Source: a phage
Reading direction: 5' to 3' (one strand)
Sequence record: PZ513998.1
Length of the DNA: 56,697 nucleotides
Below, one piece after another: positions 4,600 through 56,697 of this stretch. Position numbers and translations under genes: made by a program. The number at the start of each line of letters is the position of its first letter. Within the stretch, counting starts at the first letter, position 1. The notes beneath the pieces were generated by a model that saw only the letters and a program-made list of their open reading frames with translations, was not told the DNA's origin and made no database searches.

Positions 4600-6123
4600 A
4601 TGCGAAAGAAATTCTCGAAACGTACGGTTGGGAAGACTAAAGTTAACCTACTTGAAGAAATCAGGAAAGGTAGAAAACTTGTTGAAAGACAACGGGAAGA
4701 CTTACACGAGTATCAAGTTGAAGCCCGACAACTGGCGCATGACATTCCATTCTGCGGATTATTCCTCGAAATGGGTATAGGCAAAACCGTAATAACCGGA
4801 ACGCTGATCGCCGACTTACTTGATAACTTTGAAGTAGATAGAGTTCTCATTATAGGCCCTCGTAGGGTGGCTAAAGTAACATGGCCGGACGAATTCATGG
4901 AGTGGGGTCATCTATGTGGGTATAAAGTAACGCCGGCAGTCGGAACACCCAAGGAAAGACTAGCGGTACTAAATAGCAATAGTCCTATCGTATCCATAAA
5001 CCGAGAGAATGTAAGCTGGCTAGTAAACTATTACAAAGGCAAGTGGCCGTTCGATATGGTGGTCATAGACGAGTCGAGTTCCTTTAAGTCTCACAAATCT
5101 AAGCGGTTTAAGGACTTAACTAAAGTCAGACCGAGGATAAAACGACTAATCGAGTTGACGGCCACCCCAAATGGCGAGGGATTTACTTCGTTCTTTTCTC
5201 AAATATATTTACTTGATTACGGTAAACGGTTCGGCCGTAGCTTCAATAAGTTTAGGGATAAATACTTCGAGTACAACCCGTATAACCACAGCATCAAGCC
5301 GAGAGAAGATACGGAGATGCGTATCTTAGAAAAGATAAAAGATATATGCGTAGTTATGCGAGCAGAAGACTATCTCGATCGAGTACCGTATGAGCCAAAG
5401 GTGATCCCGGTAAAACTCAATAAGAAGATCACCAAGGAGTATTTCGACTTCCAAAAGAATTTAGTCATGATGATACCCGAAGCGGAAAACGTCATAGTGG
5501 AAGCGCAATCGGCAGCGATACTCGCATTGAAACTGCTACAAATGTGCTCCGGCGTTATTTACAACACGTACTATGACGGGATAGATGAGAACGAGGAGCC
5601 GATAAGGAAGACCGACATCTATGATATCCACGAGGAGAAACTAGACGCGCTCGAAGTGTTTCTGGAAGAAGCAAAGGAAGCCGGAAAGAATGTTTTCCTT
5701 GGGTATCACTTTCGGTCATCACGAGAAAGAATATTAGCCCGATTCCCGGATATCGTCGAGATGGATAAAGACGGAAATAACATAAAACAATGGAACGCGG
5801 GGCGAATAAAAGTTTACATGGCACACCCTCAAAGTGCGGGGCACGGCTTGAATTTACAGCGGGGCGGACATACAATTCTTTTCTATGACATTCCGTATTC
5901 GTTCGAGAACTATGACCAATTTATCGGCCGGCTCGATAGGCAAGGTCAAAAGCACCGAGTAACAGTACACCACTTAGTTGCGGTCGGAACAAATGAAGAT
6001 GGCCGAACAGTCCAACTAGCCGACCGCCACGTTTATAACAATCTGAGACGTAAGGAAGAAAACCAAGATTGGGCCTTGAAGACCTTACGTGATCTCAGAA
6101 AAGCGATGAAAAAGGAAGTTTAG
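4600..6123 (+). CDS. SNF2-family helicase
   Basis: 507 aa; Walker A LEMGIGKTVITG, DExx box VVIDESSSF, C-terminal helicase motif QFIGRLDRQGQ; first 41 nt identical to 6371-6411. Confidence 0.8.
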   Translation: MRKKFSKRTVGKTKVNLLEEIRKGRKLVERQREDLHEYQVEARQLAHDIPFCGLFLEMGIGKTVITGTLIADLLDNFEVDRVLIIGPRRVAKVTWPDEFMEWGHLCGYKVTPAVGTPKERLAVLNSNSPIVSINRENVSWLVNYYKGKWPFDMVVIDESSSFKSHKSKRFKDLTKVRPRIKRLIELTATPNGEGFTSFFSQIYLLDYGKRFGRSFNKFRDKYFEYNPYNHSIKPREDTEMRILEKIKDICVVMRAEDYLDRVPYEPKVIPVKLNKKITKEYFDFQKNLVMMIPEAENVIVEAQSAAILALKLLQMCSGVIYNTYYDGIDENEEPIRKTDIYDIHEEKLDALEVFLEEAKEAGKNVFLGYHFRSSRERILARFPDIVEMDKDGNNIKQWNAGRIKVYMAHPQSAGHGLNLQRGGHTILFYDIPYSFENYDQFIGRLDRQGQKHRVTVHHLVAVGTNEDGRTVQLADRHVYNNLRRKEENQDWALKTLRDLRKAMKKEV

Positions 6124-6411
6124 ATGACTGTTAGAGAGAGCAAAGTCGAATCGGATATCCGAAAATACGCTTTGGCCCGAGGCTGGTGGGTTTCTAAATT
6201 TACTAGCCCCGGTAAACGAGGCGTACCAGACCGGATATTCATTAAAAACAGTTTTGTAGTTTTTATCGAAATCAAACGCCCCGGAGAGAAGCCGTCGAAG
6301 CAACAAGAATTACGCATGGCCGAGATGAAGCGCTACGGGGCTTTAGTATATTGGGTGGATAATTTAAACGATGCGAAAGAAATTCTCGAAACGTACGGTT
6401 GGGAAGACTAA
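6124..6411 (+). CDS. VRR-NUC domain nuclease
   Basis: 95 aa; PD-(D/E)xK-like core GVPDRIFIKNSFVVFIEIKRPGEKPSKQQ typical of VRR-NUC; classic partner of phage SNF2 helicases. Confidence 0.65.
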   Translation: MTVRESKVESDIRKYALARGWWVSKFTSPGKRGVPDRIFIKNSFVVFIEIKRPGEKPSKQQELRMAEMKRYGALVYWVDNLNDAKEILETYGWED

Positions 6412-10380: not shown

Positions 10381-10863
10381 ATGTCACAACAAAACGGCGT
10401 TTTAGAAATGTTATTAGCTAGCTTCGCAACTTTAAACGAGAATATCGAGAAGTTAAACGGAAACATCGAAGCGTTGGTAGCTAACGGCGTAGCATCGGGT
10501 AAAACTGAAACTAATGCCGACACTAAAGCTGAAAGCAAATCTGAAACTAAAGCAGAAAGCAAGTCAGAGACTAAGACAGAAGAAAAGAAAGCGGATAAAA
10601 AATCTAATTCTAAAAAATCTGAAAAACAAGCTGACAAGCCGGCGGATAAACCTAAATACACTAAATCAGACATCACCGAAGCGCTTCGCAAAGTTCGAGC
10701 TGATATCGACAAAGAAGAAGCGGTTCGCATCATCAATGAAGTCGGCGGTGTTGAGAAGATGGGCCAGATCCCAGAAGATAAGTATGAAGCTGTTTTCCAA
10801 GCGTGTGAAGCATCTCTTAACGGTGAATCAGATGACGACTCAGGCGATGACGACGATATGTAA
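10381..10863 (+). CDS. hypothetical acidic protein with KSETK repeats
   Basis: 160 aa; repeats ESKSETKAESKSETKTEEKK and Asp-rich C-terminus SDDDSGDDDDM; function unknown. Confidence 0.35.
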   Translation: MSQQNGVLEMLLASFATLNENIEKLNGNIEALVANGVASGKTETNADTKAESKSETKAESKSETKTEEKKADKKSNSKKSEKQADKPADKPKYTKSDITEALRKVRADIDKEEAVRIINEVGGVEKMGQIPEDKYEAVFQACEASLNGESDDDSGDDDDM

Positions 10864-14294: not shown

Positions 14295-14350
14295 TTGCTG
14301 TGTCAGAAAGAAAGTAATATAGTTGCTGTGTCAGAAAGAAAGTAATATAG
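14295..14350. repeat. tandem direct repeat, 2 x 28 bp (TTGCTGTGTCAGAAAGAAAGTAATATAG)
   Basis: two perfect adjacent copies at 14295-14322 and 14323-14350, inside an AT-rich stretch. Confidence 0.9.
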
Positions 14351-19425: not shown

Positions 19426-19995
19426 ATGGCAGAATTAGCATACACTAAAGCGTCTATCTTCCAATCTATCGTTGATGATGTTAGTACGGGTCTACCTAAA
19501 GGAACTTCATTAGATACCCGCGGAGATTTCGAAAATCAATTACGCGACCTTTTCGAAGAAAATAATCTTATGAATGCGCCGGAATGTATCAGCGTCGACT
19601 ACTTCGGGGAAGCATGGGAGATCGTCCAGTCTAGCGAGTTTGATTCTGTTGAGCTAGAAACGCCTTTAGATTTCAGCGGGTGCAAAAGTTCATTAAAATG
19701 TTTGATGATGGAAGCTAACGCATTAATAAGCGCGTCTTGGCGTGAACAAGTGGAAGCCTACATCGAAGAACTGGCCGAAGCACTGGAAGAAGTTGTCGAG
19801 GGTTGCGAGGAGTTCGGAACAATCGACGAACTGGTAATCACTGGCGGGTGCCGTTTCGGTCACATTCCACACCTAAGAGAGTTCGATGCTGGCGACTTTT
19901 CTGTGTGCATGTGGGCGCCGAACGAAGCCGGAGAGTCTGAAATTTATTATAATTTCCGAGGTCTGGAACTGCGCGGGGTTGTATATCATGGGTAA
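19426..19995 (+). CDS. hypothetical acidic protein
   Basis: 189-aa ORF. Confidence 0.3.
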   Translation: MAELAYTKASIFQSIVDDVSTGLPKGTSLDTRGDFENQLRDLFEENNLMNAPECISVDYFGEAWEIVQSSEFDSVELETPLDFSGCKSSLKCLMMEANALISASWREQVEAYIEELAEALEEVVEGCEEFGTIDELVITGGCRFGHIPHLREFDAGDFSVCMWAPNEAGESEIYYNFRGLELRGVVYHG

Positions 19996-20373
19996 GTGGA
20001 CGGTGTGACATACTTTTCATCAGTTCCTAAAGATACCAATTCACGCCGGGCGAGATCCCGGCTTTCTTCGTTCTTGAGTCCGCACGAAAAAGAGTTACAA
20101 CTATCTACGCACGACATACAGACTATTTTAAACCTAGCTAATGCGTTTTACTTCCGAGCTGATCCGGAGAGTAAACCGGCTTACTCAGACAACAAAACTA
20201 TTGTAAGCCTTCGCATATCCGGAATAGTCGAAGATGATCGGGGCTGGCTCATTATCCGCCGGCATTTCCTTAATTCTGGTCAGTGCTGGAAGACGTTGCA
20301 CTTAGAGGTTATTTTTACCCACATAGAAAATCTGACCTTATGTGAGTGTAAAATTCCCTATTTCCCCGATTGA
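19996..20373 (+). CDS. hypothetical protein
   Basis: 125-aa ORF, GTG start. Confidence 0.25.
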   Translation: MDGVTYFSSVPKDTNSRRARSRLSSFLSPHEKELQLSTHDIQTILNLANAFYFRADPESKPAYSDNKTIVSLRISGIVEDDRGWLIIRRHFLNSGQCWKTLHLEVIFTHIENLTLCECKIPYFPD

Positions 20374-20565
20374 ATGATGAAGAATAAAATCACATTAAAC
20401 AGCGGTATGATTTTAATCGCTGACGACGAAAAAGTTACGGTAAACGCAGACGGTTCGCTATTCTGTCCGGCGTGGGATATGCGCTTTATGTTAACTCGTA
20501 ACATTTCATATAATCGAACGGTTACACATCGAGAGGTGAAAAGTTTTGAGCGATTATACAGTTGA
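20374..20565 (+). CDS. hypothetical protein
   Basis: 63-aa ORF. Confidence 0.2.
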   Translation: MMKNKITLNSGMILIADDEKVTVNADGSLFCPAWDMRFMLTRNISYNRTVTHREVKSFERLYS

Positions 20566-22539: not shown

Positions 22540-22887
22540 ATGGTAAAGGTCTTATACAACAGCGAACAAGCGCAAGTAAACCAGTTGCGAGACCAGATTA
22601 AATCGCACACTGAGTCGTTTGAAACAGCGATGGCCGAAGTCGACCAGATCATTAAAGAAAATATCGAGACATACCTAAACGATATATCCGGGTTAATGAT
22701 GTCGATAGTTAGAGTGTATGACAACGCGGAGATTGAGGACAAAGCGGTGGCCTTAGATCTTGTTCACTCTAAAGCGGTAACTCGTTTAGCTGCTATCGAA
22801 GATAAGAGCATAGAACTACGCGCCCATATTGAAAACTTAGTATCCACCATTAAAACCGGAGTGATTAAAAACAATGAAACCATTTGA
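22540..22887 (+). CDS. hypothetical protein
   Basis: 115-aa ORF, predicted helical. Confidence 0.3.
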   Translation: MVKVLYNSEQAQVNQLRDQIKSHTESFETAMAEVDQIIKENIETYLNDISGLMMSIVRVYDNAEIEDKAVALDLVHSKAVTRLAAIEDKSIELRAHIENLVSTIKTGVIKNNETI

Positions 22888-23976
22888 ATGAAACCATTTG
22901 ATAAATTTATTGCTTTTGCAATATCTGAACCAGCAGACCCTAACAATACGACTTCGTTTTCCGCATTAGCTAACGGGACAGAAGACCAACTAAAACAACT
23001 AGGCCGAGAACTAGAAACAAGCCTGAGAAACTTACCGATCGGAGACCCAAGCGCTATGCAGTGGACGCGCCACGGTTTTGCTAAACCCGACGAGAACGCC
23101 GAACCGATCACCGTTGTAGATGAAGTCCTAGGGGACATGGAAGACACACCATACGTTATGATAGACGAAGCGGGTAAATATCTTGTGTTCACTTTCGAAG
23201 AACGTGCTCGAATGCTAAGCCCGACAACGATCAAGGACGAATTAGAGGTTAAAGTAAAAGATTGGATAGAACGAGTTGGTGACACCCCGACAAAACGTGA
23301 ACGTAATGATATGCGCGATGAAATCATCAATGACTTGTTGCCAAAGGCCACAATAAAGCGCACCAAGACATACGCCATGATCATCAAGGGTGTTCTTATT
23401 GTCTTCGCCGGTAGCAATAACATCGGTGAAAAAGTAGCATCGGCCGTAAGAAAGGTAGTAGGGTCTCTCCCAGTAGTACCATGGTTTGAGCATTCGGCCC
23501 TCATTACGGAGTTTCTAAAGAAAATCGCTACGGTAGACTTTGACCCGGAAGATGCAGTAGGCCAAGCGCTAGATAAATTTGAGATTGTCCGTAGTGCTAA
23601 AGTCTCCGCTGAAACCGGTGCGTACACTTTCAAAGATGTTTTTGACATCACGAATGACGTTTCCTTCAAAGAAGCGCTAGGACAAACTAACGGATACTCA
23701 TACCCTCTCGGGATCACCGAAGCGAATTTAGAATTACGACATGACGCCACAGACAGCCCTATCGGTTTTGTTCTTACGGCCAAAGGCGTTTTAAAGAGCG
23801 TAAATTGGAATGACGAGCCGGAAAATATTTTCGACGACTCAGTGTTTGACACGAACGAGGAACGGGAGCGTGCTCGATTTATTTTCTCTACGTGGGACGC
23901 TTACACCTTAGTTACGGCCGTGCTAGGAGCGCTACACAACGCAAACGCAAACCGATTTGTAGAAGACGATATGTAA
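22888..23976 (+). CDS. RdgC-like recombination-associated protein
   Basis: 362 aa; segment KRERNDMRDEIINDLLPKA...AVRKVVGSLPVVPWFEHS matches the RdgC core (…LKDEVLHSLLPRAF…LLRKSLGSLPVVPLSMEN). Confidence 0.6.
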   Translation: MKPFDKFIAFAISEPADPNNTTSFSALANGTEDQLKQLGRELETSLRNLPIGDPSAMQWTRHGFAKPDENAEPITVVDEVLGDMEDTPYVMIDEAGKYLVFTFEERARMLSPTTIKDELEVKVKDWIERVGDTPTKRERNDMRDEIINDLLPKATIKRTKTYAMIIKGVLIVFAGSNNIGEKVASAVRKVVGSLPVVPWFEHSALITEFLKKIATVDFDPEDAVGQALDKFEIVRSAKVSAETGAYTFKDVFDITNDVSFKEALGQTNGYSYPLGITEANLELRHDATDSPIGFVLTAKGVLKSVNWNDEPENIFDDSVFDTNEERERARFIFSTWDAYTLVTAVLGALHNANANRFVEDDM

Positions 23977-29466: not shown

Positions 29467-29931
29467 ATGAAATTAGTATACATAGCTGGCCCATACCGCG
29501 CAGACACCAAAGAGGGCGTGGCTGAAAATATCCGTAAGGCACAAGTAATCGGGCTATCTCTAACCACCAACGGACATACATTAGGGGTATTCCCCGTGAT
29601 CCCTCACATGAATACGGCGCACTTTGAGACCCACACTTTAACCGTATCACAAAAATTCAGCGCTTTTATTGAGCCGGTGCCAGATGAATACTGGCTACAA
29701 GGAACAATGGCATTGATGGAAAAATGCGATGCGGTTTTATTGACGCACCCACAAGCCGGCATAACAAGCAAGGGAACGCGGGCGGAGGTTATGCGCGCTA
29801 TTGAGTTGGGTATTCCTGTTTATGACCACATAAACGGTCTACTATCTGACCTTAGAGACGAATCAACGCCTCTACGAAGTATTAATGTTTTGAATGACAA
29901 GCGAGAATTTCTCGGGGCGGTTGATGAGTGA
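29467..29931 (+). CDS. nucleoside 2-deoxyribosyltransferase-like protein (DUF1937/DUF4406-type)
   Basis: 154 aa; N-terminal KLVYIAGPYRAD and C-terminal CDAVLLTHPQAGITSKGTRAEVMRAIELGIPVYD typical of this Rossmann-like family. Confidence 0.45.
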   Translation: MKLVYIAGPYRADTKEGVAENIRKAQVIGLSLTTNGHTLGVFPVIPHMNTAHFETHTLTVSQKFSAFIEPVPDEYWLQGTMALMEKCDAVLLTHPQAGITSKGTRAEVMRAIELGIPVYDHINGLLSDLRDESTPLRSINVLNDKREFLGAVDE

Positions 29932-29969
29932 ATGACAAGCGAGAATTTCTCGGGGCGGTTGATGAGTGA
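29894..29969 (+). repeat. perfect tandem duplication, 2 x 38 bp (ATGACAAGCGAGAATTTCTCGGGGCGGTTGATGAGTGA)
   Basis: copy 1 at 29894-29931 is the 3' end of ORF 29467-29931; copy 2 at 29932-29969 is the 5' end of the next frame-1 ORF, read in a different codon phase. Confidence 0.9.
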
Positions 29970-30147
29970 TGTAGCGTACTTAATAGTCGTTGCGATGTGT
30001 GCCTTAGTTATAACACTAGGGATACGGAAATAAATGCCCCTTTACTTTATTATCAAAACCGGCAAGACCGCTCACCGTCTTCACCACCCCAACCGCACAA
30101 CCTTTGTCCTAGGCAGTTATGAAATAAAACTTGGTCGGCCGTTTTAG

Positions 30148-30402
30148 ATGTCCTTTTGGGCTAAAATCAAGGCGATGGCTCTAGGGGTCGTCGCCTTTTT
30201 TGTCCTCCTATTCCTAACGTGGCGTAAAGGAAAACAGGACGGAAAGAACGAGAAAGTTATCGAAGATATTATCGATAACCATATTGAACAAGAACGAGTT
30301 AATGAGGTAAAACAAGATGTCGATTCGGGGATTAATAGCTTACCGGACGGCGGTAGTTCTGATCGTCTTCGCAGTGGTTGGTTGCGTAAAGACCGTAAAT
30401 AA
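30148..30402 (+). CDS. putative lysis-associated membrane protein (holin- or spanin-like)
   Basis: 84 aa; single N-terminal TM helix (AMALGVVAFFVLLFLTW) then charged helical tail; next to putative lysin. Confidence 0.3.
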   Translation: MSFWAKIKAMALGVVAFFVLLFLTWRKGKQDGKNEKVIEDIIDNHIEQERVNEVKQDVDSGINSLPDGGSSDRLRSGWLRKDRK

Positions 30403-31107
30403 ATGGCGAATTTAAAGCCTAAAGGTATCAGACAAAATAACCCGGGTAACTTGGAGTGGGGATCTCCTTGGCAGGGGCTAGTACCGAAAGCGGAGAGAAC
30501 GTCTCCTCGCTTTTGTGAATTCGTAAATCCGGTTTATGGTATTCGTGCGATCGCAGTAACGTTAATCACGTATTACGATAAGCGCAAATCAAAGAACGGC
30601 TCTCGCATCGACTCCGCGCGTGAAATCGTTGAGCGTTGGGCGCCGGGGTCGGAGAAAGGGAATAATACCAACGTATACGCTAAAAACTTAGCAGACCTAC
30701 TAGGCGTTGGCCCGGACGACGAAGTTATCGATATGCACGACTACGACCAGTTGTTTTTATTGGTGTCAGGCATCATCGGTACAGAAAACGGCTTCAATGG
30801 GCCACTCAAAGGCAAAACGGTAAACACTTGGTATTCTGACGAGACTATCGAAGAAGCCCTCCGTATGGCCGGGGTGACTAAGAAACCGAAAGTCGTTAAT
30901 TCTACTGCAACCGTAGCAGCCGGCACCGCAGCACTAGGCGTCGCTCAGTTGGTTGAGGTCGTCCAGCCGGTCAAGGAGGCGGTACACAATGCCTCGGGAG
31001 ACCTTTCATCTGGCGACTACGCTAGAATCTTCCTCGGCGTCGCCACCGTCGGGATCGGGATTTACCTCGGCTATGTCCGCTACCGTAAATTCAAATTGGG
31101 GCAGTGA
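30403..31107 (+). CDS. putative cell-wall hydrolase (endolysin-like) with C-terminal membrane anchor
   Basis: 234 aa; N-terminal IRQNNPGNLEW motif; C-terminal hydrophobic helix RIFLGVATVGIGIYLGYV; flanked by small TM proteins. Confidence 0.3.
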   Translation: MANLKPKGIRQNNPGNLEWGSPWQGLVPKAERTSPRFCEFVNPVYGIRAIAVTLITYYDKRKSKNGSRIDSAREIVERWAPGSEKGNNTNVYAKNLADLLGVGPDDEVIDMHDYDQLFLLVSGIIGTENGFNGPLKGKTVNTWYSDETIEEALRMAGVTKKPKVVNSTATVAAGTAALGVAQLVEVVQPVKEAVHNASGDLSSGDYARIFLGVATVGIGIYLGYVRYRKFKLGQ

Positions 31108-31422
31108 ATGGCGGGTAGAGATGGAGGTACGGGAGGCGTTCGCATTGACTTGGCGATCAATATCCCGACTATCCTTTCGCTAATAGCAGCGTTGTGTAGC
31201 GGTATAATGTGGGTTAATAACCAGTTTAGCAATGTTAGAAACGATGTTTTGTTGGTCACGGCTGACGTTAGAGTCCTAGAACAACGAACAACGCAAGCCG
31301 AGCGGGAAATCGCCGATATAAAACATAATACCGCACAACAAATAAACCAGTTTCGAGGTGAAGTTCGCGAAGACCTTAGAGACATTAAAACTAGCGTTCA
31401 AAAACTCGCAGATAAAAAATAG
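31108..31422 (+). CDS. membrane-anchored coiled-coil protein (spanin-like)
   Basis: 104 aa; TM helix IPTILSLIAALCSGIMWV followed by heptad-like charged helix. Confidence 0.3.
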   Translation: MAGRDGGTGGVRIDLAINIPTILSLIAALCSGIMWVNNQFSNVRNDVLLVTADVRVLEQRTTQAEREIADIKHNTAQQINQFRGEVREDLRDIKTSVQKLADKK

Positions 31423-33408
31423 ATGGCAGTCAACGCAAGGAACACTTCGCGGGCTGTCGTTTATCAGATCTTGCCTGACTTTAGGGCAAGGTCTACCCAC
31501 CGGAATGTTCTATATCAGGTCTCCGCGAAACTGCGTTTTCGGTCGCAGCACCGAAACGTGGTCTACCAAATACCGCCATTTCGTGCTAGGTCGGTCGTTT
31601 CTAATATAGTATATAGTACCGATTCAACTGCAAGAACGGTAATTACTGTCCCACAAGCGCTAAACCAAGTTGTCTATAACACGTCGTACCAGTTTGAGAT
31701 TTCAAACAATATCATTGGTGGGGTAATAAATACCGCGACCTATTCATGGGTTGAAGCGTTGCCGATCTCTAAACTTGATGTGAAGTCTTTTACGCAACTG
31801 GTGGTCGTTGGTACGGAATACGACACTACGTCCATGAAGTTTATCGGGCAAAACGTCCACCTCGTAAACCAAGGGCTACCGCAACCCCGCCCGGTCGATA
31901 CATGGTCGAACACGGAGATGGGTTCCGAGGTTATGCTCGTTTGTCAGTCTTTGGATATCGAATATATCCCGAGATCCGGGGTTGACTCTCCTAGCGTTGT
32001 ATCGTTGGTTTCCTACTCATCTCCGATAAAATGGGAGACAAGACCGGCTGACGTCGGTACGGTAACACATTTAGCATCGGTTCCGACGGATTTGTTCGGC
32101 CTCCCTAACTCTTTCACATCTTCCGGGAGTGTCGTTCAATTGTCGTCGTACCCGTCCACACCTCCGGCACGAGTAGGGGTTGAAAACGTCCCTCAGATTG
32201 TCAGTTTAGCCTCGATACCGGTAGGCGATGATCCGACCGTCGGAGTGGAGAAATCGTCTCAGGTTTTCACTCAAGCGATTCTGTCATCGGATTATGTATA
32301 TCCGCAATCCGATACTGATGTCGGCCAAGTTTTATTGTCACAAGTTGAGTCGGTCATTGATGAACTACCGATTTCCCCGGAGGACGTTAGTTCCGTTGTG
32401 TCCTTATCGGCGATTGGGGTCGACGCAACATGGAGTTGGTCAGATATATCTTCACCGTCAGTTAATATTTTGGCCGTACAAGATAGCCCGCAACCTCCGC
32501 TAGAGTCGTACTTCGTTTTAAATGCGGTAGGGTCTGCTACGGTGGCGATGTTATTAGAATCGGACTTCGGGCCGGCACACAAAGACAGTTACACCGAAAC
32601 GTATTCCGTACCGATCCTATCGTTGATGACTGCGCCTAAACGGTTTTACCCGCCTCTTGATAACGTGGTAGAACTTGAGAAAGGAAACCATGTTACTCAA
32701 TACGTTACGTCTACTGCGATGAAACGTGACGACGGTATGCCGATATCTACGGAAGATGTCGCCTCACTATCCATTGTTTCCGGGATAAAATCTCCGATGC
32801 CAACTCCGGACGAAGTTGCGAGGAAAGGCGACTTTATTTCGGGCCTATCGCAACACACCATGGTTACGAGTTCGTTCCCGTCTACGGAAGAACCTCAGAG
32901 TTATGTTGAAACGGGTAGTTTAGCTAAAAATATCGCGGTAACGGCATCGTACCCTGATATTCGTCTACCGATGACAGTTGGCCAAACGGACTTAGTAGCA
33001 TTTAATATCGCTAACTCGGTTGACTACCCGCCGGTGAAATCGTTTTTAATGTATGATTTCGCGGGATTAGTAACACAAAATATCGCGTGTAAGGCTAACT
33101 ATTTGCCCGCAAATACGCTAAACTCCTTATCGTTGACGACACAAACTTCGGCTAACGTTGCGTTCTCGGCCAGATACCCTGATAAAAGTACGGTTTATTC
33201 GCGAATTAATTCCGCTCAGGTTTCATCTTCGCTGGCAACGGTAGCTGAGTACCCGGATAAAGACTCAGTTCTTTCAGACATAAAGTCTACGTCCGTGTAT
33301 CAAAATGTTGTGCGCGTCGATTCTTCGTTATATCACATGCCACACCCACCGCAGAGACATCGCGTTAGGATCGTGTGTAAGATGATATATGGATATAAGA
33401 ACCGATAA
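31423..33408 (+). CDS. repeat-containing tail fibre-like structural protein
   Basis: 661 aa; N-terminal repeated RNVxYQ motif and recurring xYPD/YPP motifs; Ser/Thr/Val-rich; sits in tail-fibre position. Confidence 0.4.
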   Translation: MAVNARNTSRAVVYQILPDFRARSTHRNVLYQVSAKLRFRSQHRNVVYQIPPFRARSVVSNIVYSTDSTARTVITVPQALNQVVYNTSYQFEISNNIIGGVINTATYSWVEALPISKLDVKSFTQLVVVGTEYDTTSMKFIGQNVHLVNQGLPQPRPVDTWSNTEMGSEVMLVCQSLDIEYIPRSGVDSPSVVSLVSYSSPIKWETRPADVGTVTHLASVPTDLFGLPNSFTSSGSVVQLSSYPSTPPARVGVENVPQIVSLASIPVGDDPTVGVEKSSQVFTQAILSSDYVYPQSDTDVGQVLLSQVESVIDELPISPEDVSSVVSLSAIGVDATWSWSDISSPSVNILAVQDSPQPPLESYFVLNAVGSATVAMLLESDFGPAHKDSYTETYSVPILSLMTAPKRFYPPLDNVVELEKGNHVTQYVTSTAMKRDDGMPISTEDVASLSIVSGIKSPMPTPDEVARKGDFISGLSQHTMVTSSFPSTEEPQSYVETGSLAKNIAVTASYPDIRLPMTVGQTDLVAFNIANSVDYPPVKSFLMYDFAGLVTQNIACKANYLPANTLNSLSLTTQTSANVAFSARYPDKSTVYSRINSAQVSSSLATVAEYPDKDSVLSDIKSTSVYQNVVRVDSSLYHMPHPPQRHRVRIVCKMIYGYKNR

Positions 33409-41600: not shown

Positions 41601-42426
41601 TCTCGCAGCAGAAATCCAGCCTAAAGACGTGGTAAACAAACAACTGGAAGTGAAACTACGCGCGGATAGACCATATCCACCGGGGTTCTTGCTCGGCAAC
41701 GGTGAGCACTTTTTCAAAGGGTGGGACGCACTGGCCGATAACTTTGACTACTATGACCCGCAAGGCAAAGACTTAGTGATGACGTGGGCGCACCGTAACC
41801 GAGTTCGTCAAGGGGAAACCGTGTTAGACCATCTTGATGTGGGACAACAACGGCCAAGCGACGTAATGTATCGAGTGTGGATCGGGAAACGATATACTCC
41901 TAGATACAGCAATCGCACAGTTACTATCACCATGGGGACGTATTATACTCGCGACGCAGGAATGACGATCAAGGCCGAAGACTTACACGCGTTCGGCAGA
42001 CGAGTAGGGATCTTGACGGAATCCACCGGCTACGTCTATGTTTCGATCACGGTATCCGCTGTCGATGAAAACGAGCTTAGTAGCTGGCAAGGATATAATA
42101 CTCAGTGTAAAGTACCCTCAATTCCGGCCAAGCGAGATGTTGACCCCAATCCGGGAAGACCTGACCCGGGAACTGGCGGTGGCGAAACTGGCGGTGGCGG
42201 AACTGGCGGTGGTACGAACCCCGGCAATCCAGATCCGGGTCAGCCTGATAGACCGAACCCCGACCCCGACCCGGGCAACCCTGATCCAGAACCTAATCCG
42301 GGCAACCCTGACCCTGATCCGGTCGAGCCTCCGCCACCGTTGGTTGTTGCCGGTTGGTCAAACAAGTGGGATCATGATTGGGCGGAACGACTACCAGACC
42401 AAGACGTCAAAGAGGATACTGAATAA
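38647..42426 (+). CDS. host specificity / central tail fibre protein (lambda gpJ-like)
   Basis: 1259 aa; N-terminus MGLHMGIGRGPIDEL resembles the start of J-like tip proteins; size and position relative to tape measure fit; Pro/Gly/Asp-rich repeat tail at C-terminus. Confidence 0.55.
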   Translation: MGLHMGIGRGPIDELMEIEVGGRTAWRGSVKESSFFRIRAENLFGGKKAEGGIEGGFELYMGDKDQVVSDKLKSMLGGGSQPEFRGVATGYFDGLVSAMNPYPKAWRFKIRRILKGWDGGVWYPEKAVIELTGHDDEGKEYPIKAMNPAHVIYECMTNRDWGRGISRDLLFDSEFRKVADTLFEEGFGICIAWRRQDTLESFIQNILNHISGVLYVDKFTGTFKLKLLRNDYDADNLPVYGFESGLLQIEEATNGAIHGLMNECVVKWFNPIVGKESQVRAQNLALIQTSGAIKSDTFTYEGVPTAKLATIIAERDLRVASTNVRRFTLVCDRRAWRVQPGDVLKISDPKTRGLESVIVRVADTEESKQSDGQIRLSCVQDTFSFDLNTFTGVQDPSFPKPNLNPVPARRLVYEATYAELSSLFPLGEFEAIKPSFGYLRAQAEKGSPVTMAFEMHVQNPTTGKYEKTGAGDFTALFELPVDLGYLDRYIRMKDPVDEDLIEVGDVFYVNQEIIMIQSIEEDGLVEIRRGVYDTVPHQHPAGSVVWDMVQGGGLDLTTRQAGETLSVKILPWTLSGGVLDESNVSEDELTFNYRFYRPYAPGKVELTSVESTEPNPWFNGHVLRADVGEAEVPDALTITWAHRDRPMQQDKPIYHEQDSIGPEPGTTYRISILNAKGEVIRRENGITGTQFVYTYGQASLDLNVEASAIDPVAGYLRLESMRDGFESWQNYLIPITVFKKPPQMAYVSFLNQSVAQVSDKIDPEDKDGETAVDAKAMVSFVNQSVAQESEDLSSGGGGLPDGVNVSYVRQPVSQQGKLVPIVDSQLFEFPYLMLLRHGFEPSASQFFATVARPSDRVTDGYDLFEKEKNDTEYVNQGAQPWTPWGILSKAISYLDNEIILDATSDSDGVPTEDAMPGDVIFVGAEAMVIRGIDGKRITVGRGCVDTIPALHGKGQVVWFVDKQIASGQRKYHDGQTCVVAVRPHSLAAEIQPKDVVNKQLEVKLRADRPYPPGFLLGNGEHFFKGWDALADNFDYYDPQGKDLVMTWAHRNRVRQGETVLDHLDVGQQRPSDVMYRVWIGKRYTPRYSNRTVTITMGTYYTRDAGMTIKAEDLHAFGRRVGILTESTGYVYVSITVSAVDENELSSWQGYNTQCKVPSIPAKRDVDPNPGRPDPGTGGGETGGGGTGGGTNPGNPDPGQPDRPNPDPDPGNPDPEPNPGNPDPDPVEPPPPLVVAGWSNKWDHDWAERLPDQDVKEDTE

Positions 42427-50418: not shown

Positions 50419-51606
50419 ATGGCACAACCATGTACAAGCAGCAACGACCAGAATTACGTCGTAGGGCGTGGTCGACTATTCTTCGACAAGTTCGTCGACG
50501 GTTGTAACAACTCCGAGCATGGCGAAATGTATTTCGGTAATACCCCGGAGTTATCACTATCTTCTGACACAGAAACGTTAGACCATTATTCGTCTGATTA
50601 TGGTATGCGTGAAAAAGACCTAACCGTGATGCTAGAGCATTCTCGTTCTGGTTCATTCACAACCGACCATATCTCCGCGGACAACCTAGCGTTGTTCTTC
50701 CTAGGGGACAAAACGCATGTTACTCAGACTCAGGTGACAGGCAACAAAGAAGTATTCGAAAACGTGGCATTAGGTCGTCACTACCAACTCGGCACAACGG
50801 ATATCCTACCGATGGGCGTTCGTAACATCGAGAATCTGTTAGTTTACGTGGCGGACGGTGATACAACCATCAACCTAGGCGATGGCGATGTGTCAACTAT
50901 CGACGGTGTAACTAAAGTAAATTTTGCCGGCCAGATCGACTACGACCTAGAGTTAGGACGTATCTATATCGAACCTACCGCTACTGAAATTAAAAACGGT
51001 CAGCAGTTAGTAGTCCAGTATGACATCGAGGCGCAGGCTCGCGAAATCATCATTGCCCGTAACCGCATGATCTACGGCTCACTGCGATTCTTGTCAGCTA
51101 ACCCGGTAGGTAGCGCGAAAGATTTCTACTGGCCCAAAGTCATGTTACAACCTGACGGAGACTATGCACTTAAAGGTGACGACTGGCAACAAATTGGGTT
51201 TACCTTTAGCGTTCTTCGCAAAAACCGCAAAGTGGAGCAGGTTTACATCGAGTCAGCGATGGCAAGAGCATCTACGCCCCCAAAGCCTGATCCGGAGCCG
51301 GAATACCGTCTAACTCTTAGCGTTACTCCGACCTCCGGTACTGAGGGTGATACTTTAGTAGCTAAGGTAAAAGCTACGAAAGACGGCGCTCCGAGAAAAA
51401 CAAAAGTGGTCTTTGCCTTTAGCTCCGACGAGGTGGAACTGGCCGATAGTCACCCTGACGGTGTAGAGACAGACGGGGTTACGGGAGAGGCCACTGTGAA
51501 TCTTACGGTAGGCCCCGTGTCCGGTTCCGCGACAAAAGTTACGATAACAGTAACCGATAGCGACGGAGGAAGTGCGACGGAGGAAGTTACCGTCAACCCA
51601 AAGTAA
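50419..51606 (+). CDS. major tail protein with C-terminal Ig-like domain
   Basis: 395 aa; C-terminal ~100 aa Thr/Val-rich beta-strand pattern (TLSVTPTSGTEGDTLVAKVKATKDG ... TKVTITVTDSDGGSATEEVTVNPK) typical of Ig-like decoration on major tail proteins. Confidence 0.5.
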   Translation: MAQPCTSSNDQNYVVGRGRLFFDKFVDGCNNSEHGEMYFGNTPELSLSSDTETLDHYSSDYGMREKDLTVMLEHSRSGSFTTDHISADNLALFFLGDKTHVTQTQVTGNKEVFENVALGRHYQLGTTDILPMGVRNIENLLVYVADGDTTINLGDGDVSTIDGVTKVNFAGQIDYDLELGRIYIEPTATEIKNGQQLVVQYDIEAQAREIIIARNRMIYGSLRFLSANPVGSAKDFYWPKVMLQPDGDYALKGDDWQQIGFTFSVLRKNRKVEQVYIESAMARASTPPKPDPEPEYRLTLSVTPTSGTEGDTLVAKVKATKDGAPRKTKVVFAFSSDEVELADSHPDGVETDGVTGEATVNLTVGPVSGSATKVTITVTDSDGGSATEEVTVNPK

Positions 51607-56181: not shown

Positions 56182-56697
56182 AACCTTTCATACGAACAGT
56201 TTAGCCGAGACTACACGAAGACTAACTATTCTTCCGCGAGAGCCTCAATGGGGGAAACATGGAAATTCATGCAGTCTCGCAAAAAGATCATTGCTGATGC
56301 TTTCGCTACAAACATTTATGCGTTGTGGTTAGAGGAGATGATAAACAAAAACGAAATCCCGTTGCCACGAGGAAAAACGAGCGACTGGTTTTACGAACCG
56401 TTAGTGAAAGACTGTTTAATTCGTTGCGACTGGATAGGTGCAGCCCGCGGTCAAATCGACGAGAAGAAAGAGACCGAAGCAGCTATCATGAGAATTAACA
56501 GTGGTCTGAGCACTCGTGAGAAAGAAATCGCTCGACTCGGCGAAGACTGGAGAGAGATTTTTAGGCAGTTAGAACGAGAAAAACGAATAAAAGATAAATA
56601 CGGGCTTGTTTTCTCCGGAGATGTGAGTAATATATCCGCTAACGAGAAAACAAACTCGGAAGATGACGAAGAAACTAACAGTGGGGATTCGGAATGA
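56182..56697 (+). CDS. portal protein, lambda gpB family, C-terminal fragment lacking a start codon
   Basis: open in frame 1 directly after the protease stop; first ATG only at 56248; translation NLSYEQFSRDYTKTNYSSARAS...CDWIGAARGQIDEKKETEAAIMRINSGLSTREKE is colinear with gpB residues following ...IAAGL (GVSYEQLSRNY...CDWIGSGRMAIDGLKEVQEAVMLIEAGLSTYEKE); continues exactly where ORF 547-1671 stops. Confidence 0.75.
   Translation, partial: NLSYEQFSRDYTKTNYSSARASMGETWKFMQSRKKIIADAFATNIYALWLEEMINKNEIPLPRGKTSDWFYEPLVKDCLIRCDWIGAARGQIDEKKETEAAIMRINSGLSTREKEIARLGEDWREIFRQLEREKRIKDKYGLVFSGDVSNISANEKTNSEDDEETNSGDSE

Follow-up and report, generated by a model that had tools for sequence, protein, structure and literature searches.

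The perfect 38-bp tandem repeat at the 3' end of a nucleoside 2-deoxyribosyltransferase-like (NDT-like) gene is, with a probability of about 0.97, an artefact of data construction, produced when two overlapping gene calls were each written out in full. The repeat is real as a string of letters in the window, by which we mean the whole analysed stretch of 56,697 bases, yet it belongs to no phage genome. The window itself consists of the predicted coding sequences (CDSs) of Escherichia phage E21 (Lavrentievavirus, Casjensviridae), set head to tail without intergenic DNA, and does not represent a native sequence.

A perfect repeat on a gene boundary

The sequence ATGACAAGCGAGAATTTCTCGGGGCGGTTGATGAGTGA occurs twice back to back with 0 mismatches (Table 1), and TRF reports a tandem at 29891-29969 with a period of 38, 2.1 copies and 100% matches, so that the perfect 2 x 38-bp tandem described at 29894-29969 in an earlier note on this DNA is borne out. 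No further copy of the 38-mer was found in the window when up to 3 mismatches were allowed, and the chance expectation for such a word, taken from 100 dinucleotide-preserving shuffles, was 0 matches. The same note had assigned the first copy to the C-terminus of one open reading frame (ORF) and the second to the start of a 34-codon ORF, and both assignments are correct: copy 1 terminates the NDT-like frame (...NDKREFLGAVDE*), and copy 2 begins a frame of 33 residues, equal to 34 codons with the stop (MTSENFSGRLMSDVAYLIVVAMCALVITLGIRK*). The repeat unit runs from ATG to TGA, and the junction at 29931/29932 falls exactly on the boundary between the two ORFs.

Table 1. Features around the repeat, in the coordinates of the window and of phage E21
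Feature	Window	Strand	E21	Remarks
NDT-like CDS (nucleoside 2-deoxyribosyltransferase-like, 154 aa)	29467..29931	+	30861-31325 (+)	
38-mer, copy 1	29894..29931	+	31288-31325	3'-terminal 38 nt of the NDT-like CDS, TGA stop included
38-mer, copy 2	29932..29969	+	31288-31325, repeated	5'-terminal 38 nt of the called 33-aa CDS
Called 33-aa CDS	29932..30033	+	31288-31389 (+)	Longest-ORF version; also annotated in SD-11_S17 and SD-12_S18
Conserved 23-codon core ORF, MSDVAYLIVVAMCALVITLGIRK*	29962..30033	+	31318-31389	Internal ATG start
Called 37-aa CDS	30034..30147	+	31402-31515	Call judged spurious
i-spanin CDS	30148..30402	+ in window	31575-31829, minus strand	Flipped in the window
o-spanin gene (79 aa, lipobox VVGC)		minus	31421-31660	Not among the CDSs of the window

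The window as a concatenation of gene calls

A greedy parse from base 1 divides the window into 85 consecutive plus-strand ORFs with 0 intergenic nucleotides between them, each opening with ATG, GTG or TTG directly after the preceding stop codon, with the sole exception of the last, which opens with AAC. Exact full-length matches to the 58,536-bp genome of phage E21 (MN604053.1) were obtained for 84 of the 85 segments, each in coding orientation. Because the ORFs abut throughout and match E21 exactly in their coding orientation, the window is a concatenation of CDSs and not a native sequence. From the third segment on, the order of the E21 genome is kept, with genes taken from the plus or the minus strand, and the gaps between neighbouring segments in E21 coordinates are either positive, where intergenic DNA is missing, or negative, where genes overlap; between the NDT-like CDS and the next plus-strand CDS, the gap is -38. 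The smallest segments are exactly 90 nt long, and partial genes stand at the ends of the record, which suggests a gene caller similar to Prodigal.

Comparison at the level of whole sequences agrees with this composition. In megablast searches the repeat region leads to the group of Proteus phages pPM_01/PM87 (Lavrentievavirus, Casjensviridae), but the alignment is interrupted at the repeat and 3' of it. A direct comparison of the window with E21 shows collinear genes from which short intergenic stretches are absent, and each of the three lysis genes (30148-31422) is separately reverse-complemented with respect to E21. What seems to be a 12-nt indel or deletion in the window relative to its relatives is the spacer between the called 33-aa and 37-aa CDSs, which was dropped together with the other intergenic DNA.

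Some details of the construction lie outside this scheme. The segments at 1-180 and 181-546 (E21 19875-20413, minus strand) lead the window out of genome order. The third segment (547-1671), the only one of the 85 without an exact full-length match, consists of E21 1-1122 in reverse complement, the 5' part of the portal gene, which runs into the start of the record, followed by a TAA at 1669-1671 that is absent from E21, and the last segment (56182-56697), which starts with AAC, is the reverse complement of E21 58021-58536 and holds the 3' part of the portal gene; the division of this gene follows from the linearisation of the circular E21 record. Nothing in the reordering at the start, the additional TAA or the split portal gene speaks substantively against an artefact.

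Origin of the duplication

The gene caller would have chosen the longest ORF available for the small hydrophobic frame located 3' of the NDT-like gene, and this choice would make the call share 38 nt with that of the NDT-like gene. Since each of the overlapping CDSs was written in full, the 38 nt appear twice, on either side of the junction. The earlier note had considered an overlap artefact the likeliest explanation, and the 38 nt shared by the two CDSs in E21 confirm it; the copy number in the parent genome, which the note had proposed to check, is one.

The same behaviour is observed at the other junctions. Exact duplications of at least 4 nt are present at 12 of the 84 junctions, compared with 0.65% of random positions, and every duplicated junction unit opens with a start codon and closes with a stop codon. 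Eleven of these twelve duplications match same-strand overlaps of E21 in length (4, 28, 4, 7, 14, 4, 4, 8, 4, 8 and 38 nt), the twelfth being a chance ATGA. Conversely, all plus-strand overlaps of at least 4 nt in E21 (11/11) give rise to a tandem duplication of equal length, and the minus-strand overlaps (11/11) reappear as non-adjacent repeats of up to 41 nt, in which the start of one segment equals the end of another. Outside E21, the 38-mer is single-copy in each of the 14 Lavrentievavirus genomes examined, and the records of Salmonella phages SD-11_S17 and SD-12_S18, in which the DNA is continuous, annotate the identical two CDSs with an overlap of 38 nt.

The repeat thus resembles what is obtained when other overlapping gene calls of phages and prokaryotes (ATGA, 8-nt or longer overlaps) are exported as separate CDSs: the unit extends from the start codon of the downstream gene to the stop codon of the upstream gene, a property shared with 10 further plus-strand overlaps in the window. 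It differs from the other plus-strand overlaps in the set by its length, 38 nt being the longest. This length was probably inflated by the selection of the start of the longest ORF, and the biologically plausible overlap between the NDT-like gene and the small ORF is likely 8 nt (see below).

Two other accounts of the repeat were weighed. The first, a genuine 38-bp tandem duplication in the phage genome, arising for instance by replication slippage, which would have doubled the 3' end of the NDT-like gene and created a new ORF, draws on the perfection of the repeat and on its being far above chance expectation, but the segments that hold the two copies overlap in E21, where the stretch is single-copy, only one copy exists in all 14 relatives, every overlapping gene pair in the window behaves alike and the window is wholly devoid of intergenic DNA. 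As far as deposited sequences go, a true tandem duplication is excluded by the single copy in E21 and its relatives, and we assign this account a practically negligible probability. An assembly or tiling overlap, in which contigs or reads would have been pasted together untrimmed and independently of gene calls, would produce a visibly identical outcome, namely a duplication at a junction, and is permitted by the wording of the earlier note; against it stand the succession of a stop codon and a start codon at every junction, the flipping of minus-strand genes one by one, the loss of intergenic DNA and the extent of the duplicated units, always from start codon to stop codon. Because junctions and duplicated units coincide with ORF boundaries, the window is explained by concatenation of CDSs and not by tiling of fragments, which we regard as very improbable.

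Further repeats in the window can be sorted along the same lines. Similar artefactual tandems stand at other plus-strand overlaps, with a 28-mer at 14295-14350 and a 14-mer at 22874-22901, and a dispersed artefactual 41-mer (4600-4640 and 6371-6411) derives from a minus-strand overlap at E21 5545-5585. Tandem repeats that TRF reports away from segment junctions are genuine in-gene repeats: 24 nt x 3.1 at 10500-10574, 15 nt x 2.8 at 42171-42212 and 14 nt x 2 at 51560-51587.

The native locus

In E21 and its relatives, the plus-strand NDT-like gene is followed by the small ORF on the same strand and then by a hairpin, which the minus-strand genes for the o-spanin, the i-spanin, the endolysin and a 104-aa lysis protein, annotated as 'lysis protein B' or 'Rz-like spanin', approach from the other side. 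As the i-spanin gene lies on the minus strand of E21, the native layout is convergent. The product of the NDT-like gene matches PHROG 355 at 1.4e-20; among Pfam families only DUF7768 passes its threshold (28.1 bits, cut-off 26), Nuc_deoxyrib_tr remaining below its own (16 vs 28.8). The label of nucleoside 2-deoxyribosyltransferase comes from the PHROG 355 match, and the predicted enzymatic assignment is accordingly a soft one.

The hairpin AAGGGGCGTAATGCCCCTT (E21 31392-31410) starts 3 nt past the stop codon of the small ORF, is GC-rich, carries T-tracts on both strands and was detected on both strands by a consensus terminator scan, by which it is predicted to be a bidirectional intrinsic terminator separating the small ORF from the lysis cassette. 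When the terminator region was folded as a whole, its stability was unexceptional (z = -1.35), and a search of Rfam over the true E21 region returned nothing near any gathering score.

The next call in the window, the 37-aa CDS, has its start within the terminator hairpin and runs antisense to the o-spanin gene, over the 3' half of the latter. In five of nine relatives AGG stands in place of its ATG, and it has no PHROG match, whereas the antisense o-spanin matches PHROG 1275 'Rz-like spanin' at 5.5e-15. For these reasons, we judge the 37-aa CDS to be a miscall antisense to the o-spanin gene.

The construction of the window has thus damaged this locus: the terminator is halved and the o-spanin gene lies in pieces, with an antisense miscall in its place. 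Of the terminator stem, the window keeps the 3' arm at 30036-30042 (GCCCCTT), and the dropped 12 nt (E21 31390-31401) contained the 5' arm. The 5' part of the o-spanin gene sits in the i-spanin segment (window 30317-30402), the 37-aa CDS is its 3' part in reverse complement, and 59 nt (E21 31516-31574) are missing from the window.

Extent and start of the small ORF

The overlap artefact was expected by the earlier note to reveal a small membrane-peptide gene overlapping the NDT-like gene by 38 nt in the parent genome. The ORF is indeed present in E21, but the extent of 38 nt is probably too large, the annotated ATG having no ribosome-binding site and the first 10 codons not being kept as an ORF in Providencia phage Kokobel1. 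In this phage, in which the NDT-like protein is 62.5% identical, a 23-aa ORF (MNDIAIWSIILLWALIFILGLRK) opens on the stop codon of the NDT-like gene (TAATG), and aligns without gaps with M11-K33 of the peptide called in the window; the hairpin stem that comes after it is the same. In E21, the internal ATG that corresponds to this start overlaps the end of the NDT-like gene by 8 nt (ATGAGTGA). An 8-nt overlap of start and stop is a typical arrangement for translational coupling. The Shine-Dalgarno duplex was calculated at -7.1 kcal/mol for the internal ATG, -0.6 for the annotated ATG and -5.7 for the start in Kokobel1, with neighbouring genes at about -6.5, a value that no more than 5% of random sites attain or fall below. 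Given the Kokobel1 counterpart and a Shine-Dalgarno match at the internal ATG with none at the annotated one, the conserved unit probably comprises 23 aa from the internal ATG, which would be its real length, should the ORF be a gene.

Conservation and coding evidence

The frame of the small ORF is open in 14/14 Lavrentievavirus genomes, which represent 10 haplotypes. Between E21 and Kokobel1, 26 of 72 nt of the mini-ORF differ (36% nucleotide divergence), and in simulations placing 26 changes in 72 nt the frame stayed open and equally hydrophobic with P = 0.0065. Within Lavrentievavirus, outside the overlap with the NDT-like gene, five of eight variable sites are synonymous in the frame of the small ORF, compared with 2/8 and 1/8 in the other frames; with 5 synonymous against 3 non-synonymous changes and a neutral expectation of approximately 0.27-0.29, this modest excess has P of approximately 0.03-0.05 and, like the simulation, draws on few substitutions.

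Conservation in relatives, a check that the earlier note had proposed, gives a divided picture: the 23-aa core is kept in Lavrentievavirus and in Kokobel1, so that position, length and character are conserved beyond the genus into Kokobelvirus, but not in L021, in Chi or, as regards the core, in SVV09-A. In the L021 lineage, in which the NDT-like protein is 52% identical and the convergent architecture is the same, there is no mini-ORF and the NDT-like stop codon leads directly to the hairpin; in Chi, there is zero spacer between the NDT-like gene and the next minus-strand gene. A scan of 80 NDT loci of IMG/VR by NDT alignment found a hydrophobic mini-ORF at the NDT stop codon only in Lavrentievavirus, Kokobelvirus and Yonseivirus and in one chance-like case, the mini-ORF being absent from 69 of the 80. 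A DNA pattern derived from the conserved end of the ORF retrieved from IMG/VR only E21, Kokobel1 and one chance match (L018). The metagenome scan yielded no NDT relative above 42% identity, and no record of the exact peptide was present in the gene-call collection.

The record named 'Staphylococcus phage SVV09-A' (UNVERIFIED; L105, PV593182.1, 2640-2720) combines a Lavrentievavirus backbone with a Kokobel1-like C-terminus of the NDT-like protein, which suggests a mosaic recombination junction at the site of the mini-ORF. Its hydrophobic core is missing, and the last 18 nt are kept, including the T-tract of the minus-strand terminator. Since these 18 nt persist without the core, the conservation of the 3' end of the small ORF may be due to the terminator.

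A candidate coupled membrane peptide

The product of the small ORF would be a single-pass inner-membrane peptide of 23 aa, with the pattern M(S/N)D-hydrophobic17-LG(I/L)RK, in Lavrentievavirus and Kokobelvirus. Ribosomes that reach the NDT-like stop codon could produce it by termination-reinitiation coupling, as the arrangement of start and stop in E21 or the TAATG of Kokobel1 would allow, and its gene would be the last cistron ahead of the bidirectional terminator, with the lysis cassette on the other side. By the positive-inside rule, an N-out/C-in topology is expected. Because it is absent from L021-type phages and lacks its core in SVV09-A, the peptide would be a dispensable accessory factor; host membrane proteins, lysis timing and superinfection exclusion are candidate targets. 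Taken as a whole (a largely unannotated peptide, coupled, encoded by the last cistron and dispensable), this reading is a candidate with about one chance in two of being right.

The main competing view is that the small ORF is no gene, i.e., a chance frame in the 3'-UTR between the NDT-like stop codon and the terminator, called for exceeding the minimum length. It is in keeping with the losses in L021, in Chi-like phages and in SVV09-A described above, with the 3' end of the ORF doubling as the T-tract of the minus-strand terminator, with the omission of the ORF from most curated annotations, with the demonstrably spurious nature of the adjoining 37-aa call and with the permissive caller that the 90-nt minimum suggests. 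It does not sit easily with the retention of length, start-on-stop arrangement and hydrophobicity in Kokobel1 despite the divergence of the nucleotide sequence, with an excess of synonymous changes that is confined to the frame of the small ORF, or with the Shine-Dalgarno match at the internal ATG in both genera; we consider it a serious possibility that falls somewhat short of an even chance. The ORF could also be a gene exactly as called, with 33 aa and a true 38-nt out-of-frame overlap with the NDT-like gene. Although none of the 14 Lavrentievavirus genomes interrupts the 33-codon frame and the PHROG 1470 match discussed below spans residues 5-33, the upstream ATG has no Shine-Dalgarno match, the 10 additional codons lie outside the Kokobel1 ORF and variation at codons 8-9 changes the residue in this frame (G8V, R9W), which makes this version unlikely. 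Between these views, the existence of a real, dispensable 23-aa membrane peptide is predicted from sequence comparison with roughly even odds.

Relation to known small proteins

A role as a holin or antiholin was rejected, as the small ORF and the lysis cassette lie on opposite strands, with the bidirectional terminator between them. A Pfam search with the peptide returned nothing. In PHROG, residues 5-33 match positions 21-49 of the 54-position profile 1470, 'TciB-like inhibition of cell division or resistance to colicin' (E = 4.2e-5, 24 bits). Like TciB of phage P1, the peptide is a small hydrophobic phage protein, but P1 TciB has 54 aa and two hydrophobic segments, is encoded beside the TerB-like tciA (tciA-tciB-tciC) and has a function assigned only 'by homology', whereas the peptide would have one helix and its gene neighbours the NDT-like gene and the lysis cassette, with no tciA. 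As the match is partial and includes residues that are not conserved in Kokobel1, and as architecture and context differ, membership in a TciB-like family was rejected in favour of a compositional resemblance.

A closer parallel in position is gp49 of Klebsiella phage Soft (Yonseivirus), a protein of 66 aa annotated as 'signal peptide transmembrane', whose gene likewise lies directly after the NDT gene and before an annotated terminator, convergent with genes for an o-spanin, an i-spanin, an endolysin and a holin. It begins with MLNDI..., to be compared with MNDI... for the peptide considered here. Unlike the product of the small ORF, gp49 is 66 aa long and has two hydrophobic segments, and with an hhalign probability of 1.3%, homology of the 23-aa peptides to the Yonseivirus protein was rejected; gp49 is a positional analogue only.

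In more general terms, the peptide resembles the membrane proteins encoded by small ORFs (smORFs, <50 aa) in its 23-33 aa, single hydrophobic helix, basic C-terminus (RK), restriction to a lineage and mostly unannotated state. Unlike these, the candidate has no assigned family and would be encoded at the end of an early/DNA-metabolism operon convergent with the lysis cassette. Small hydrophobic smORFs are treated, in passages of two articles (PMC11188072, PMC11364881), as a recognised class that is commonly overlooked by annotation.

Implications

All junction duplications in the window, as well as the placement of all genes on one strand, reflect the construction of the sequence and not the biology of the phage; the window is no guide to gene order, strand, intergenic signals or repeats. 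Similar care applies to the host names under which related genomes are filed. Genomes 95-97% identical to Proteus phages appear under unlikely hosts, namely Enterococcus phage AS-M1_NWU, Staphylococcus phage SVV09-A, Pseudomonas phage E21 and Salmonella phages SD-11 to SD-14, and host labels in the Lavrentievavirus group should be treated with caution.

A minor lead that emerges from the comparison is a candidate membrane micropeptide of 23 aa that would be coupled to the NDT-like gene and for which the likely start has been corrected. If true, it would be one more overlooked phage smORF and would introduce no new principle. The phages that would encode it belong to a group of Proteus and Providencia phages with a place in therapy studies.
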